Positions 828 to 33,742 of a DNA stretch of 33,742 bases are shown one piece after another. Numbering within the stretch: the stretch's first letter is position 1; every line of letters starts with the position of its first letter. The stretch lies in contig CANQLF010000001.1 in NCBI GenBank assembly GCA_947624635.1, positions 1 through 33,742 on the forward strand. The letters run 5' to 3'. The notes under the pieces are model-generated. The model saw only the letters and a list, made by a program, of their open reading frames with translations, ran no database searches and was not told where the DNA came from. The position numbers and the translations under genes are program-made. The DNA comes from an uncultured Bacilli bacterium. Lineage in GTDB: Bacteria; Bacillota_I; Bacilli_A; RF39; UBA660.

Positions 828-883
828 ATATATTCTCCTTCCAAAAATTGCGGGATAAGTATTATCTGTAATCCTACTAAAAG

Positions 884-911
884 TATATAAAAATTCAATA
901 TCAAATGTCAA
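884..911 (-). promoter_or_regulatory. Sigma-A-type promoter of TasA-like gene A
   Basis: On the - strand: TTGACA (906-911), 16-nt spacer TTTGATATTGAATTTT, TATATA (884-889). Same architecture as the paralogue B promoter, with a roughly 50-nt leader. Confidence 0.5.
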
Positions 912-1784: not shown

Positions 1785-1812
1785 TATATAAAAATCCCCC
1801 CCCGGTTGTCAA
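1785..1812 (-). promoter_or_regulatory. Sigma-A-type promoter of TasA-like gene B with a G8 tract in the spacer
   Basis: On the - strand: TTGACA (1807-1812), ACC, GGGGGGGG (1796-1803), ATTTT, TATATA (1785-1790). Spacer is 16 nt. Confidence 0.5.
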
Positions 1813-2968: not shown

Positions 2969-3391
2969 TTATTCTTCTTCTTCACTTTCATCTTTATCTA
3001 TTATAACTAAGTCTTCTAAATCATCGTCTTCGTAATCTTCATTTGCATCGTAGTCTACATCTTTTTCATCATCTTCGTCGTCATCATCATCTTCGTCGAT
3101 TTCTACATCTATATCATCTTCGTCATCTATAACTATTTTAGCACTGTGTCTTTCTCTTAAATCCCAATTACCACTATCTAGTGCATAAAATCTTTTATCT
3201 GTTGTAAGTGATGTATAAAAGTCACCAATTCTATCTGCATATTCATCATCAGATAATTCTAATAATTTAGCAATTTCTTTAAACAATTCAACAGTTGTTT
3301 TCTGTTCTTTACATTTTTTTAATATTTCATAAGCTATATCAGTGAATGATAATAATTCTAATTCATCTTTTTTCATTTTGTAAATGTTCAT
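2969..3391 (-). CDS. rpoE: DNA-directed RNA polymerase delta subunit
   Basis: 140 aa. N-terminal HARE-HTH-like domain (FTDIAYEILK...LFKEIAKLL...RIGDFYTSLTTDKRFYAL..WDLR) followed by a long D/E-rich acidic tail. GGAGGA RBS lies 6 nt upstream of the ATG at 3391. Confidence 0.85.
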   Translation of the reverse strand: MNIYKMKKDELELLSFTDIAYEILKKCKEQKTTVELFKEIAKLLELSDDEYADRIGDFYTSLTTDKRFYALDSGNWDLRERHSAKIVIDDEDDIDVEIDEDDDDDEDDEKDVDYDANEDYEDDDLEDLVIIDKDESEEEE

Positions 3392-3402
3392 AAATATTCC
3401 TC

Positions 3403-5016
3403 CTACATTTTGTCAGGTGATGATACACCGATTAAATTAAGTGCATTACTAATTGTAATTTGTACTGCTTTAATAAGGGCTAATCTTTCACTTGAGTATT
3501 TAACATCATCACTTAACACTTTTTCTTGTGCATAGTATGTATGGAAAAGTGATGCAAGGTCATATACATAGTTAGCAATCAAATGTGGCAGTTTTTTATT
3601 CGCACTACTTTGAACTATTAATTCAAACTCATATATTTTTTTCAAAATATCATATGCAACTTCATTATCAATTGTTTCAAATTTAGTTGCAAATGGTATT
3701 TTTTTAGCTTTTTCATCATTAAGTATAGAACAGATTCTAGCATGTGCATATTGAATATAGTATACAGGATTTTCATTAGATTTTTTAACAGCTAAGTCCA
3801 TATCGAAATCCATTTGAGTATCTAAGCTACGCATTGCAAAAAAGTATCTTGCTGCATCTATTCCTACTTCTTCCATGAGTTCTCTCATAGTAATAGTAAG
3901 ACCTGTTCTTTTACTCATTTTAACTTCTTCACCATTTCTTAGTAGTCTAACCATTTGTAGTATTTTTATGTGAATTTTATCTTTATCATAACCTAAAGCT
4001 TCTACACTTGCTTTAAGTCTTTTTATATATCCGTGATGATCTGCACCTAATACATCTACTATTTCATCATATCCTCTATTAATTTTATCTAAGTGATATG
4101 CGATATCTGGTACTAGATAAGTATAGTTTCCATCAGATTTAATTAGTACTCTATCTTTGTCATCTCCAAATTTAGTAGTTTTAAACCATACTGCGTCATC
4201 ACACTTATATAGATTATCATGACTTTCAAGTATATTCAAGCATTTTTCGATATTTCCTGATTTTCTTATTGATTGTTCACTTGTCCATACGTCAAATGAT
4301 ACTCTAAAATCTTTTAAATCTTCTTTAATTATTGAGGTTAATGTATCTTTTGCGATATTAGAAAAATATGTATCATCTTCATCTAATTTTGTATCTTTAT
4401 ATTTGTCATATAAATCTTGTGCGATATCTATTATTTCTTGTCCGTGATAACCATTTTCTGGTAAATCTTTTTTAATACCACAAATAGTTGAATATCTTGC
4501 TTTTAATGATTTACCTAAGTTTTCTATTTGAACACCACCATCATTAAAGTAGTATTCTCTTGTTACATCATATCCTGCAAAATCTAATATCCTACATAAA
4601 TTATCACCGTAAGCTGCACCTCTTGATGTACCAACGTGTAAAAGTCCTGTAGGATTAGCGCTTACAAATTCTACATTTATCTTAATATTTTTTTTATCTT
4701 TAGCTCTACCATAATCTTTATCTTCTTTAATAACTTTATTAATGTTATCAAATAAATATTTCTTATTTAAATAAAAATTTATAAATCCAGGATTAGCTAT
4801 TTCTATTTTTTCAATATTTTCATCATTATTAAATGAATCTTTTATAGTATTAGCAATATTCATTGGATTATCTTTTAATACTTTTGATAGTTTTAAAGCA
4901 ACATTACTTGAGTAATCACCATTTTTTTTATCTTTTGGCACTTCAAGTTCAATATTTGATTTATCTATATTAAGTTTTTCACTTATTTTTGTTATTAAAT
5001 AATCTTTAATATCCAT
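3403..5016 (-). CDS. argS: Arginine--tRNA ligase
   Basis: 537 aa. Class I synthetase motifs ANPTGLLHVGTSRG (HIGH-like) and KMSKRTG. C-terminal anticodon-binding (DALR-like) region. Confidence 0.92.
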   Translation of the reverse strand: MDIKDYLITKISEKLNIDKSNIELEVPKDKKNGDYSSNVALKLSKVLKDNPMNIANTIKDSFNNDENIEKIEIANPGFINFYLNKKYLFDNINKVIKEDKDYGRAKDKKNIKINVEFVSANPTGLLHVGTSRGAAYGDNLCRILDFAGYDVTREYYFNDGGVQIENLGKSLKARYSTICGIKKDLPENGYHGQEIIDIAQDLYDKYKDTKLDEDDTYFSNIAKDTLTSIIKEDLKDFRVSFDVWTSEQSIRKSGNIEKCLNILESHDNLYKCDDAVWFKTTKFGDDKDRVLIKSDGNYTYLVPDIAYHLDKINRGYDEIVDVLGADHHGYIKRLKASVEALGYDKDKIHIKILQMVRLLRNGEEVKMSKRTGLTITMRELMEEVGIDAARYFFAMRSLDTQMDFDMDLAVKKSNENPVYYIQYAHARICSILNDEKAKKIPFATKFETIDNEVAYDILKKIYEFELIVQSSANKKLPHLIANYVYDLASLFHTYYAQEKVLSDDVKYSSERLALIKAVQITISNALNLIGVSSPDKM

Positions 5017-23539: not shown

Positions 23540-23823
23540 AAATCCACAGGTATCTGTGGAAAACTATACTATATTTTTATAGTTTTTATAGAGTTTTCCA
23601 CAGTTTCAACAGCTATGTTGATAAATTTTACCACAAGTGTGTTTAATTTATCAACAAGAATGTGTATAATTTAATATTTATATTATAAAATATTAAATTT
23701 TGCTGTGGAAAAGTCTGTGAATATTAAATTTTCTTTAATTTTTTTCATATTTTTGTTTTCTTTTCAACAGTTTTAGTTTAAAATATTAATTAGATTGGAA
23801 TACTTTATTGGAGGTGATTGGTT

Positions 23824-25191: not shown

Positions 25192-25290
25192 TGTGGATAA
25201 GAAGAGAATTTTCGACAACTTTTGCACAACTAAAAATATAAAAATAGTTCATTTTTAGGTTATTTTTTTAAGTTATCCACAGTTTCCACA
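25192..25290. promoter_or_regulatory. oriC part II: DnaA boxes in the dnaA-dnaN spacer
   Basis: Perfect TTATCCACA at 25192-25200 (- strand, as TGTGGATAA) and at 25273-25281 (+). The latter is directly followed by GTTTCCACA at 25282-25290. Confidence 0.8.
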
Positions 25291-26610: not shown

Positions 26611-27051
26611 ATGAATTGCTACGAAATAAATGAGGAAACATTAGCTATATTACCTTATGGAGATACACAAAGTAAAATAATTGAAAAATATAAGGAATTT
26701 ATAGTTAATAAAACTCCTTATGAAATTATAACTTACAGTTGTTTATATTTTGGCAGTTCCTATGAAGGAAGAATTTCAGCAACTAAGTACCTTCTTGGAA
26801 TATCATATAAATCACCAATTGTAATAGAAGAATCTCGCAATTTAATTTTCTTTCCAACAAACTCGCCAAAATTACAAGACTGTAGCTGGATTTCTTTGAA
26901 AAGTATAGTAGACTATAAGAGAAATAATAGTAAATCAATGATATTATTTGATAATAACGTTAGATTACCACTTGATATTTCTTATGGTTCTCTAGAAAAT
27001 CAAATTATGAGAGCTTCTAGGTTAGACTCTATGTTAAGAAACAACAGATAA
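26611..27051 (+). CDS. comK: ComK-family protein (competence transcription factor-like), short form
   Basis: 146 aa. Aligns by eye with B. subtilis and S. aureus ComK landmarks: AILPYGD..SKIIEK, SCLYFGSSYEGR, GISYKSPIVIE, IFFPTNSP, CSWISL, ISYGSLENQ. GGGGGTGA RBS. Confidence 0.65.
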   Translation: MNCYEINEETLAILPYGDTQSKIIEKYKEFIVNKTPYEIITYSCLYFGSSYEGRISATKYLLGISYKSPIVIEESRNLIFFPTNSPKLQDCSWISLKSIVDYKRNNSKSMILFDNNVRLPLDISYGSLENQIMRASRLDSMLRNNR

Positions 27052-30249: not shown

Positions 30250-32691
30250 ATGGACAGATTAGAACAAAATAATATAGTTAAAGAAGTAAGAGATTCATTC
30301 TTAGATTATTCAATGAGTGTCATAGTAGCACGTGCACTTCCTGATTTAAGAGATGGATTAAAACCTGTTCACCGTCGTATATTATATTCGATGTATGAAT
30401 CTGGTTATACTCCTGATAAACCTCATAAGAAAAGTGCGAGAATAGTAGGGGATGTAATGGGAAAATACCATCCACATGGTGACTCTAGTATCTATGAAGC
30501 AATGGTACGTATGGCACAAGACTTTAGTTATAGATATGAACTTGTGGATGGACACGGAAACTTTGGTAATATCGAAGGTTATGGCGCAGCTGCGATGCGT
30601 TACACTGAATCTAGATTATCAAAAATTTCCCTTGAACTTCTTAGAAACATAAATAAAGATACAGTAGATTTTATTGATAACTTCGATGAATCAGAAAAAG
30701 AACCAACAGTTTTACCTTCAAGATTTCCGAATATTTTAGTAAATGGTACTATGGGTATTGCAGTTGGTATGGCAACTAATATTCCACCACATAACTTAGG
30801 TGAAGTAATAGATGGTTGTGTTGCTTATATTGATAATCCAGATATCGATGTTCCAGGATTAATGCAATATATTAAAGGACCTGACTTTCCTACAGGAGCT
30901 GTTATTTTAGGTAATAGTGGAATTAGAAAAGCTTATGAAACTGGTAGAGGAACAATTACTATCAGAAGTAGAGCTCATATAGAAGAAAATCATGGTAAAC
31001 AATACATAATAGTTGATGAAGTACCTTATGGTGTTAATACTTTAGAACTTAAAAACAAAGTTGCAGAATTAGTACATAATAAAACTATTGATGGAATTAC
31101 TGATTATCATGCGGATTTAAAAGATGGTATTAAAATAACTATTTCATTAAAAAGAGATGCAAATGCTCAAGTTGTTTTAAATAAATTATATAAACATACT
31201 GCTTTTCAAGTTAATTATGGTATTATTTTCTTAATGCTAGATCAAGGTGTTCCAAAAACTTTAGGATTAAAAGATATAATTGTTAAATATATAGATTACC
31301 AAAAAGAAATTATAATTAGAAGAACTAGATTTGATTTAGATAAAGCTGAAAAAAGAGTACATATCCTAGAAGGACTAAAGATAGCTTTAGATAATATTGA
31401 TGAAGTAATTAAATTAATTAGAGGTTCTAAAGCGGATGAAGAAGCAAAAAGTGGACTTATGGAAAGATTTGGACTTTCTGAAGCTCAAGCTAACGCAATT
31501 CTTGAAATGCGTCTTAGAAGATTAACTGGTTTGGAACGCGAAAAAATAGAAGACGAATTAAAAGAATTAACTGAATTAATAGCTGAACTTAAATCTATTT
31601 TAGCTTCTGAAGAAAAAGTTTTAAGTATAATTAAAGAAGAGTTATTAGAAATCAAAGAAAAATATGGTGATGAAAGAAGAACAGATATAGATATGACAGC
31701 TATTGAATATATCGAAGATGAATCACTTATTCCAGAAGAAAATATTATTGTTGCTTTAACCAAGAATGGTTACATTAAGCGTACAACTACTGATACTTTC
31801 AAAGCACAAAGACGTGGTGGTGTAGGTATTAAAGGTATGAGTACAAATGAAGAAGATTTTGTTGACAATATGATTAATTTATCTTCTCACGATTATCTAT
31901 TATTCTTTACTAATAAAGGTAAAGTTTATAGAATGAAAGGATACGAAGTTCCTGAATTTAGTAGGCAATCAAAAGGATTACCAATTATTAATTTATTATC
32001 AATAGAAAAAGACGAAAACATTAGTTCGATGCTAATGATTAAAAAAGATGAACAAGATGCAAAATATTTGCTATTTGTAACTAAAGATGGTGTAGTTAAG
32101 AGAACTAAGTTAGAAGAATTCGATAATATTAGAAATAATGGTAAGATAGCAATTACTCTAAAAGAAAATGATGAATTAATTAGTGTTAAGAAAACTACTG
32201 GAGATAACTTTATATTAATTGGATCTGATCAAGGAAGAATGGTAAGATTTAATGAAAATGAAGTTAGAGTAATGGGTAGAACTGCATCTGGTGTTAGAGG
32301 TATAAATATGCCAGAAGGTGCTAAATGTGTTGGTGCAGAAATATCTAATAGTGAAGATGAAATATTAATTGTTACTGAAAAAGGTTACGGAAAGCGTACA
32401 AAGGTTGAAGACTTTAGAGAAACAAGACGTGGTAGCAAGGGTGTTAAAGCACTTAATGTTACTGAAAAGAATGGAACTATAGTTGCATTTAAGATTGCAA
32501 ATGATGATGAAGATGTTATGGTAGTAACAAATAGCGGAATTATTATTAGATTACCTATTAATCAAGTTTCTGTTTTAGGTAGAGTTACTCAAGGTGTTAG
32601 ATTAATTAATTTAAAAGATAATCAAGTAGTAGCAACAGTTTCTACTGTTGTTAAAGAACAAGAATCTGATGAAGAAGAAGTCGAAGAATAG
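30250..32691 (+). CDS. gyrA: DNA gyrase subunit A
   Basis: 813 aa. QRDR region [17 protein letters not shown], catalytic Tyr context [11 protein letters not shown]-terminal beta-pinwheel repeats, acidic tail. TAGGAGG RBS. Confidence 0.95.
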
Positions 32692-32702
32692 ACTTCTTTT
32701 TT
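32677..32702 (+). terminator. gyrA terminator
   Basis: GAAGTC (32677-32682) / GACTTC (32691-32696) stem with an 8-nt loop, followed by T6 (32697-32702). Overlaps the gyrA stop codon. Confidence 0.55.
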
Positions 32703-32704
32703 AA

Positions 32705-32720
32705 TGTTTCACGTGAAACA
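32705..32720. promoter_or_regulatory. parS site 1 (ParB/Spo0J centromere-like site)
   Basis: TGTTTCACGTGAAACA, a 16/16 fit to the Firmicute parS consensus TGTTNCACGTGAAACA. Perfect palindrome, 18 bp with flanking A/T. Confidence 0.85.
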
Positions 32721-32810
32721 TAGGTAGAAATTCTAATAAAAAAATAAAATTTAACAAAAAAATATAATTAAATATTGAAATAAATACTATTGATTATAAA
32801 AATAAAACAA

Positions 32811-32826
32811 TGTTTCACGTGAAACA
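32811..32826. promoter_or_regulatory. parS site 2
   Basis: Identical TGTTTCACGTGAAACA, 106 bp from site 1. Confidence 0.85.
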
Positions 32827-32917
32827 TAGGATTGAAATACTAATAAAATAATTGAGTTTAATCAAAACTATAATTAAATGTTAAAATAAATAATATTAAT
32901 TATAAAAAAAAAGACAA

Positions 32918-32933
32918 TGTTTCACGTGAAACA
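32918..32933. promoter_or_regulatory. parS site 3
   Basis: Identical TGTTTCACGTGAAACA, 107 bp from site 2. Confidence 0.85.
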
Positions 32934-33024
32934 TTAGATAGAAATGCAAATAAAATAATAAAACTTAATTAAAAATATAATTAAATGTTAAAATAAATAA
33001 TATTAATTATGAAAACAAAAATAA

Positions 33025-33040
33025 TGTTTCACGTGAAACA
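33025..33040. promoter_or_regulatory. parS site 4
   Basis: Identical TGTTTCACGTGAAACA, 107 bp from site 3 and 14 bp upstream of the ffs -35 element. Confidence 0.85.
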
Positions 33041-33053
33041 TTAATTATATTTC

Positions 33054-33083
33054 TTGCATAATTAAAATAATTTATAATATAAT
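33054..33083 (+). promoter_or_regulatory. ffs promoter
   Basis: TTGCAT (33054-33059), 18 nt, TATAAT (33078-33083). A second overlapping TATAAT lies at 33073-33078. Confidence 0.5.
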
Positions 33084-33087
33084 ATTA

Positions 33088-33167
33088 GTGCACAACAAAT
33101 ATGTTGGAACCAGGTCAGAATTGGAAGATAGCAGCCTTAACAACCTCTGTTTGTGTGTGCTTTTTTT
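33088..33167 (+). ncRNA. ffs: Signal recognition particle RNA, short (4.5S-like) form
   Basis: Domain IV signature CCAGGTCAGAATTGGAAGATAGCAGCC, including a GGAA tetraloop closed by AUU/GAU and the conserved AGCAGCC strand. The 5' GTGCACAACAAA pairs with the 3' TTTGTGTGTGC and is followed by T7. Ends uncertain by a few nt. Confidence 0.75.
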
Positions 33168-33179
33168 ATGGTGATGTTT

Positions 33180-33608
33180 ATGAATAATAAATTTTTGAAT
33201 GAAATAATTAAATTAGCAGAAAAAGCTGAGAAAAATAATTGCGTTCCAGTAGGTGCAATTGTAGTTAAAGATAATAAGATAATTAGTAAAGGCTATAATA
33301 AGAAAGAAAAAACTAACAATCCTATGGATCATGCAGAAATAATTGCAATTAAAAAAGCTTCTAAGAAAATTAAAAATTGGAGGATGCCAGATTGTGAAAT
33401 TTATGTAACGATGAAACCATGTGCTATGTGTCAAAAAGTGATTGCTGAAAGTAGAATAATGAAAGTACACTACTTAATTGATAATAAAAAACAATCAAGC
33501 ACAACAAATAATATTTTAAATAAAATAAATATGCAAAAAGAAAACGAACGTATATATGAAATAAATTATACTAAAATAATAACAAATTTTTTTAAAAAAA
33601 GACGATAA
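33180..33608 (+). CDS. tadA: tRNA-specific adenosine deaminase (CDA-fold zinc deaminase)
   Basis: Zinc-binding motifs DHAEIIAIKKA (HAE) and PCAMCQKVI (PCxxC). Start chosen at the ATG at 33180 (MNNKFLNEI), 4 nt after GGTGAT. The ORF-track start at 33153 lies inside the SRP RNA. ATGs at 33168 and 33174 are also possible. Confidence 0.8.
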   Translation: MNNKFLNEIIKLAEKAEKNNCVPVGAIVVKDNKIISKGYNKKEKTNNPMDHAEIIAIKKASKKIKNWRMPDCEIYVTMKPCAMCQKVIAESRIMKVHYLIDNKKQSSTTNNILNKINMQKENERIYEINYTKIITNFFKKRR

Positions 33609-33692
33609 AATTATATTTATTAAAAGTTAACATGATATAATAACAAGAGATTCAAACTGATATAAAATTTTCACAAACCTGTTGATAAGAGC

Positions 33693-33721
33693 TTGACTTC
33701 GGGGGGGGGTTAATTTATAAT
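33693..33721 (+). promoter_or_regulatory. Near-consensus sigma-A promoter with a G9 tract in the spacer, driving a gene beyond the window edge
   Basis: TTGACT (33693-33698), TC, GGGGGGGGG (33701-33709), TTAATT, TATAAT (33716-33721). Spacer is exactly 17 nt. Confidence 0.6.
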
Positions 33722-33742
33722 AAAATTAAGGCTAGTGGATAA

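Follow-up and report, generated by a model that had tools for sequence, protein, structure and literature searches.

The right edge of the 33,742-nucleotide stretch of DNA examined here (hereafter called the window) carries a promoter-like element whose -35 and -10 hexamers are separated by a spacer containing nine consecutive G nucleotides. We think it probable that this element acts as a contingency (phase-variable) promoter like those represented by porA of Neisseria meningitidis and tp0126 of Treponema pallidum, that it belongs to a wider family, and that it drives a probable inserted gene for a surface protein. In the mechanism we propose, a hypermutable G tract would determine the -35/-10 spacing of a sigma-A (sigma-70-type) promoter. 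Whenever a G was gained or lost through slipped-strand mispairing in replication, the spacer would shift among lengths of 16, 17, and 18 nt, and the downstream gene would be transcribed more or less strongly in a heritable and reversible manner. A switch based on a poly-G spacer is a known mechanism, and to our knowledge the lineage is new for it; a literature search for poly-G-spacer promoters in low-GC gut Bacilli found no report.

Anatomy and genomic setting of the right-edge promoter

A sequence-only reading of this DNA had described the element as TTGACT-17-TATAAT with a G9 tract in the spacer. It is present exactly as described, and 11 of the 12 hexamer positions match the consensus (Table 1). 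The element thus has a homopolymer exceeding about 7 to 8 nt between the two hexamers of a sigma-70-type promoter (G9, spacer of 17 nt), and no other promoter-like site in approximately the last 1.1 kb of the window (32600-33742) ranks above it. The same reading had likened its layout to that of the promoter of TasA-like gene B, and the two promoters do share one design. Both TasA-like genes of the window match Peptidase_M73/camelysin. The promoter of TasA-like gene A (882-911, minus strand) has the form TTGACA-TTTGATATTGAATTTTTA-TATACT and is paralogous to that of gene B: the two have the same -35 hexamer and the same ATTTTTA-TATACT, with the ordinary sequence TTTGATATTGA in A and ACC plus G8 in B. 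A G tract is therefore found in the promoter of only one (B) of these two tandem genes.

Table 1. Positions of the promoter elements and neighboring features in the window
Feature	Position	Strand	Description or basis
TasA-like gene B promoter	1785-1812	-	TTGACA (1812-1807), ACC, G8 (1803-1796), ATTTT(TA), TATATA/TATACT; read directly
gyrA	30250-32691		Start of the gene order at the right end of the window
Small SRP RNA (ffs)	33084-33169	+	RF00169, 54.3 bits, E = 2.3e-9
tadA, tRNA adenosine deaminase	33168-33608	+	146 aa, last complete gene; P0001: PF00383, PF14437
Extended -10 TGATATAAT	33633-33641	+	Equals the promoter directly before dnaX in relatives; kept here 5′ of the poly-G promoter
TTTTCACAA	33668-33676	+	-25 to -17 from the -35; resemblance only to the TTAACAACA-type box
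DnaA-box-like TTATCAACA (also written TGTTGATAA)	33680-33688	-	8/9, just 5′ of the -35; sequence match, weak alone
-35 hexamer TTGACT	33693-33698	+	5/6 to TTGACA; same in orthologue L003
Spacer TC-G9-TTAATT	33699-33715	+	17 nt; read directly
G9 homopolymer	33701-33709	+	Proposed slippage-prone element; read directly
-10 hexamer TATAAT	33716-33721	+	6/6, then conserved AAAA; read directly
Box TAGTGGATAA	33733-33742	+	11 nt past the -10 both here and in L003; roughly +5 to +14 of the predicted transcript

The hexamers and the G tract differ greatly in how much they can tell us. The window is only 26% GC, and sites with at least 11 of 12 hexamer matches number 6, compared to 4.6 ± 2.1 in first-order Markov simulations. 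A consensus promoter scan gave 10 sites with 9.8 expected. The hexamer match by itself is thus at chance level in DNA of this composition. The G tract, in contrast, departs significantly from chance. Tracts of at least seven Gs are expected 0.08 times per window, yet there are exactly two, the G8 of 1796-1803 and the G9 of 33701-33709, each of them inside a promoter spacer.

The tract is also not an artifact of sequencing. We rejected a poly-G artifact of two-color chemistry because ordinary, non-repetitive sequence lies on both sides of the tract. Such an artifact is furthermore ruled out by an independent run, by the related locus L003, and by the occurrence of the design in the assemblies of many projects. 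The independent support is a unitig from another study that equals positions 33475-33708 with no mismatches and runs into the tract.

Two other properties of the region were evaluated. The box TAGTGGATAA downstream of the -10 is DnaA-box-like, with eight of nine positions of its 9-mer (33734-33742) matching TGTGGATAA. It is a possible operator, and when judged as a ribosome-binding site it is not a good one. Within positions 33600-33742, a search for a terminator found none and a structured-RNA reading was rejected (z = 0.88). Therefore, neither an RNA structure nor a terminator offers an alternative role for this region.

The DNA ends 21 nt past the -10 hexamer. The tadA protein P0001 is recorded on a single 33,742-bp contig, which means that the window is the complete contig and that its right edge is an assembly end rather than a cut. 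Consequently, the gene under the poly-G promoter lies beyond the assembly end and was never assembled. The host is a low-GC “Bacilli”-type rabbit-gut bacterium that has a very low depth (approximately 3x) in all public runs found, and even the best of these runs contain only 4 to 28% of the sampled window words. The unitigs from these runs are of low depth; none of them extends through the tract to sequence beyond the contig, and the one exact unitig stops inside it.

In metagenome-assembled genomes (MAGs), contigs very often start or stop no more than about 60 nt away from a poly-G promoter. Such cases occur at L017, L038, L044, L051, L063, L065, L081, L096, L098, L100, and other loci, as well as at the end of the window and of L003. 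This tendency accounts for the missing downstream gene at the present site. The breaks could be caused by heterogeneity of the tract, by poor reads past G runs, or by the existence of cassettes in multiple copies. As a result, genes behind poly-G promoters are probably under-represented in MAGs and systematically under-assembled. The value of the present site is limited until its downstream gene is recovered.

The order at the right end of the contig is gyrA, a 107-bp tandem repeat array, the SRP RNA gene, tadA, an intergenic stretch of 84 nt, and the promoter. The array (32703-33085, 3.2 to 3.6 copies) is located between gyrA and the SRP RNA gene, and each unit bears an 18-bp palindrome, ATGTTTCACGTGAAACAT. 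The repeat is kept in two relatives (L003, positions 1-361; L002, positions 1-140). The array looks like a set of putative sites for a dimeric binding protein.

Comparison with the tadA regions of relatives

One relative, L003, comes from another sample, has a tadA that is 80% identical to that of the window, and carries an orthologous promoter after tadA: TTGACT-TC-G8-CCATTA-TATAAT, with a spacer of 16 nt. Its contig ends 40 nt past the -10. An alignment of the two sequences shows conservation of the -35 plus TC (TTGACTTC), the tract, TATAATAAAA, and TAGTGGATAA. The stretch of six bases that separates the tract from the -10 is not conserved (2/6), and the seven bases after AAAA largely differ. 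The retention of these elements while the bases between them diverged constitutes a footprint of constraint on the promoter elements. L003 also has TGTGGACAG and ATATCCACA near the position of the DnaA-box-like site found 5′ of the -35 in the window.

The orthologous tracts have different lengths (G9 in the window and G8 in L003) despite identical -35 and -10 hexamers. The sequence-only reading had proposed that a tract fixed in length in populations and in relatives would count against a switch, and among relatives the tract is not fixed, as judged from a single orthologous copy that belongs to a different species-level lineage rather than to a population. By analogy with the known systems considered below, the G9 state (17 nt) would be the most active one and G8 as in L003 would be weaker. 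The prediction that the promoter is ON at G9 is tempered by the 16-nt spacer of L003 and by the fact that 16 nt is also the most common spacer in the low-GC promoters described in the next section.

A different arrangement is seen in eight other relatives (L001, L002, L004, L005, L006, L135, L136, and L137), where tadA is followed after 35 to 55 nt directly by dnaX and then by ybaB and recR. In the five of these that were recovered via tadA, this gene is 60 to 80% identical to that of the window. No poly-G tract is present in the tadA-dnaX gap of these eight. Instead, the gap carries an extended -10 of the form TGATATAAT/TGTTATAAT and, in most of these relatives, a GGGGTG ribosome-binding site. 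The window retains TGATATAAT and diverges thereafter. The poly-G promoter thus appears to be situated in extra DNA between tadA and the site occupied by dnaX in relatives. In L001 (554-2282), dnaX is represented by two open reading frames (ORFs; 256 and 284 aa), compared to a single ORF of 551 to 555 aa in L004 and L006; with coverage at 2.5x, this split may reflect a sequencing frameshift, or it may be real.

We also considered whether dnaX might begin immediately past the contig end. The dnaX start in L001 and L002 has the sequence GGGGTGGATAAAAATG, and GTGGATAA is common to it and to the last bases of the window. An immediate start was rejected because L003 runs 19 nt beyond GTGGATAA without a start codon. 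It is also disfavored by the bases that precede GTGGATAA (CTAGTG / ATAGTG), which make a poor Shine-Dalgarno sequence compared to the GGGGTG of relatives. The driven gene is most likely an inserted gene for a surface or secreted protein, and not dnaX, with a predicted leader of more than 40 nt. A search for the dnaX gene of the window's lineage on another contig returned three closest homologues that all lie directly 3′ of tadA without a poly-G tract, and a scan of JGI metagenomes (TTGACTTC-G7+...TATAAT) produced eight loci from other organisms (GC 0.40 to 0.67) and zero orthologues.

Recurrence of poly-G-spacer promoters and the genes they precede

One genome per GTDB species was scanned with the pattern TTGACW-N2-3-G7-N4-9-TATAWT, and at least 120 loci were found in these species-representative genomes. 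Among the matches listed, 43 loci are low in GC (0.34 or less) and contain 45 promoters. These low-GC matches are mostly from MAGs of rabbit (“Lapin”) gut Bacilli, together with goat and human gut Bacilli, “Mycoplasma sp. CAG:611”, “Clostridium sp. CAG:417”, and an uncultured Tenericutes MAG. The concentration in low-GC Bacilli MAGs from rabbit and other guts is strong but qualitative, as it is drawn from the matches listed and the scan was conducted without a matched control pattern. Individual MAGs among the matches listed have two to four such promoters, with four in Lapin-001__bin81 and in Lapin-017__bin4 and three in Lapin-016__bin44 and in Lapin-022__bin6. Accordingly, the earlier suggestion of a recurring and possibly genome-wide family is borne out with respect to recurrence and, for related MAGs, with respect to genome-wide distribution. 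The latter part does not extend to the genome of the window, which is represented by one contig.

Tracts range from G7 to G13 among the matches listed, where the most common spacer is 16 nt in low-GC loci (24 of 45) and 17 nt in the others (26 of 77). Many copies form near-identical cassettes in which essentially only the tract length differs, for example ttaacaaca...aaaac-TTGACWCC-G8/9/10-TAWTATATAAT-leader. In 350 kb of low-GC loci, most of which had been selected for a poly-G promoter, 48 of 51 tracts of seven or more Gs are in a promoter-spacer context and two to three are elsewhere. One of these genomes, L008, can be aligned collinearly to the window's left part, with 70.6% nucleotide identity over 1,078 nt of a release-factor (PCRF/RF-1) gene, and it has a poly-G promoter 3′ of that gene.

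The right-edge promoter of the window has the core of this family, TTGAC(A/T)-N2-3-G(7 or more)-N-TATAAT, in the genome of a low-GC gut bacterium of the Bacilli. In the extended conserved cassette of the main low-GC family (G-tract-TATTATATAAT with a common leader), the G tract runs directly into TA(T/A)TATATAAT, a TTAACAACA-type box lies 17 to 25 nt 5′ of the -35, and the copies have a common AAYCWTATARAATAG leader. This cassette was not found in the window promoter, which has TTAATT-TATAAT and a different leader and in which only TTTTCACAA, at the position of the box, bears a resemblance. The window promoter would thus work like those of the low-GC family without being a copy of the extended cassette. 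A TTAACAACA-type box 17 to 25 nt 5′ of the -35 is present in 14 of 45 low-GC promoters among the matches listed. The 5′ leaders of cassette genes also contain palindromes, such as TGTTGTTAATAAT-ATA-AATTATTAACAACA in L008 (approximately 4840-4870), and these are likewise seen in the leaders of L009 and L022. The palindromes and the TTAACAACA-type box may represent a second regulatory layer.

The sequence-only reading had raised the question of whether surface or secreted proteins are enriched downstream of such promoters, and they are. Taking the first ORF 3′ of each promoter that is preceded by a ribosome-binding site, we found an N-terminal hydrophobic anchor in 33 of 37 low-GC ORFs and in 31 of 65 others, compared to 176 of 781 ORFs taken as controls in these loci (odds ratio 5.8, p = 8.5e-16). 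Several of the downstream ORFs have SipW/TasA-type signals (…GATFAYF…) and one has an ALK/LTK-type glycine-rich domain, whereas most have no Pfam match. When the poly-G-driven protein of L008 was compared to the TasA-like proteins of the window, no significant homology was detected, and only L082 shares the signal-peptide region.

Variation of tract length can be observed in one of the cassettes. For L090, unitigs with one G fewer are present beside the reference length in four rabbit-gut runs, and unitigs with two fewer are present in one. The unitig depth of this cassette (3042-3149 and 1962-2069, covering the promoter and first codons) is 1,200 to 1,600, compared to 5 to 50 for its flanks. 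This excess points to many copies, and therefore the tract variants cannot be assigned to one locus. Corresponding slippage is predicted for the window tract within its own population.

Unrelated gut and oral bacteria also have conserved poly-G-spacer promoters before genes for lipoproteins or membrane proteins. These were observed in Faecalibacterium (L045, L056, L074, L087, and L110), Rothia (L012, L120, and L121), Treponema ruminis (L070), and JGI data (L128-L130 and L133). The five Faecalibacterium copies precede lipoproteins and have tracts of G8, G8, G8, G10, and G8, three Rothia species have G9, and the design is also found in T. ruminis. Tract length thus varies among orthologues or copies, with G8/G10 in Faecalibacterium and G8/G9 in L128-L133.

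Alternative explanations and known systems

The ordered arrangement of tadA and dnaX in relatives gives rise to one competing proposal, that the element is a second, housekeeping promoter of dnaX-ybaB-recR, possibly regulated by DnaA, in which the G tract is mere spacer filler and not a switch. We consider this unlikely. In its favor are the position of dnaX after tadA in 8 of 8 relatives, the ancestral dnaX -10 kept at 33633-33641, and GTGGATAA shared with the dnaX start of L001 and L002. The gene order bears on our own interpretation as well, since an ON/OFF switch on a housekeeping gene would be odd. Furthermore, the promoter lies between two 8/9 DnaA boxes (33680-33688 and 33734-33742), which L003 has retained, but 8/9 matches of this kind are common in the window (20 compared to 12.5 expected). 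The missing start codon downstream of GTGGATAA in L003 and the poor Shine-Dalgarno match again speak against dnaX. Moreover, no gene for replication or another core housekeeping function is driven by any of the 37 low-GC promoters that could be scored among the matches listed, and a run of G8 or G9 would be hard to maintain in 26% GC DNA without selection. A combined version, in which dnaX-ybaB-recR are driven from a hypermutable G tract located between DnaA-box-like sites, strikes us as quite improbable. If true, it would place a core replication gene under a stochastic, heritable switch coupled to DnaA. The contingency loci described to date control surface or restriction functions, and we know of none that resembles such a switch.

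An equally improbable proposal is that the promoter belongs to a repeated rRNA or tRNA operon inserted after tadA and that the contig stops because the operon is a repeat. The strong consensus promoter would suit this role, as would the contig ends 21 and 40 nt past the -10 in the window and L003, since rRNA operons often break metagenome assemblies. Bacillus subtilis, moreover, has rrn operons in this chromosomal neighborhood. However, the window has no Rfam match other than the SRP RNA, and an Rfam search of seven poly-G loci gave zero hits. Contigs also commonly end within about 60 nt of family promoters that demonstrably drive protein genes (L017, L044, L051, L098, and others), and the break is therefore explained by either the tract or the presence of multi-copy promoter cassettes. 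In Faecalibacterium, the copies close to contig ends likewise drive a lipoprotein gene and not rRNA. We give the least weight of all to the idea that the site is nonfunctional, either because hexamers that arose by chance surround a G tract with another role or with none, or because the contig end is mis-joined. Hexamer quality at the chance frequency for AT-rich DNA agrees with this idea, as does the fact that the promoter is known from sequence alone. Nevertheless, the -35, tract, -10, and downstream box were kept in L003 while the intervening bases diverged, related genomes have this layout in front of ORFs with ribosome-binding sites at least 45 times, and the independent unitig backs the assembled sequence. 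We thus continue to favor a phase-variable promoter.

Nearly all that has been worked out about phase variation through slippage of repeats comes from pathogens, including Neisseria, Haemophilus, Campylobacter, Treponema, and mycoplasmas, and in gut commensals attention has been given to invertible promoters. In Mycoplasma hyorhinis, which is of the low-GC Mollicutes type, the vlp family of surface lipoproteins has a poly-A tract in the promoter spacer of each gene and is switched ON and OFF in a combinatorial manner. This is the closest analogy to the families with several members per genome in the Lapin MAGs. The two differ in that vlp involves poly-A and lipoproteins, whereas the gut Bacilli have poly-G and TasA/camelysin-like or other signal-anchored proteins.

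The best-studied counterpart of the window promoter is porA of N. meningitidis, where expression is high with 11G between the -35 and -10, intermediate with 10G, and low with 9G (PMC3639595). The optimal spacing of porA is 17 nt, as summarized in a later article on T. pallidum (PMC7864442). Like the window promoter, porA has a G homopolymer of about 9 to 11 nt in the spacer of a sigma-70-type promoter, and slippage in porA shifts the spacing and grades expression of a surface protein. Unlike the window promoter, it is a single, well-studied locus of a Gram-negative pathogen in which switching has been proven, whereas our element comes from uncultured gut Bacilli and is represented solely by its DNA. 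The opc gene of Neisseria has a poly-C tract in its core promoter that tunes transcription (PMC6389960, PMC7864442), although that tract overlaps the -35 region whereas the window tract fills the spacer.

In T. pallidum, the tp0126 promoter has a poly-G tract between the -35 and -10 and is optimal at 17-nt spacing; several poly-G promoters per genome precede putative outer-membrane proteins, and 76% of 17 tested poly-G tracts vary in vivo (PMC7864442). The genome of this spirochaete is 52.8% GC (PMC7864442), and G tracts are less improbable at this composition than in the window. Some tracts of the tpr genes overlap the -10 or fall outside the spacer, whereas the window tract is within it. The gut Bacilli further differ from T. 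pallidum in having multi-copy, near-identical promoter cassettes that head paralogous gene families.

The loci collected here indicate that uncultured low-GC gut Bacilli, as well as Faecalibacterium, Rothia, and other gut Firmicutes, carry many poly-G-spacer promoters before genes for surface proteins or lipoproteins. These promoters often occur several per genome and on paralogous families. If their switching is confirmed, they would represent a sizeable and unrecognized set of phase-variable genes in commensals.

Two further features were noted elsewhere in the window. Clusters of DnaA boxes at 23555-23712 (5′ of dnaA) and 25192-25281 (in the dnaA-dnaN gap) constitute the expected bipartite oriC. 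In addition, a ComK-family gene (26611-27051; PF06338, E = 6e-45) is located between dnaN and recF, and this placement is kept in L004 and L006.
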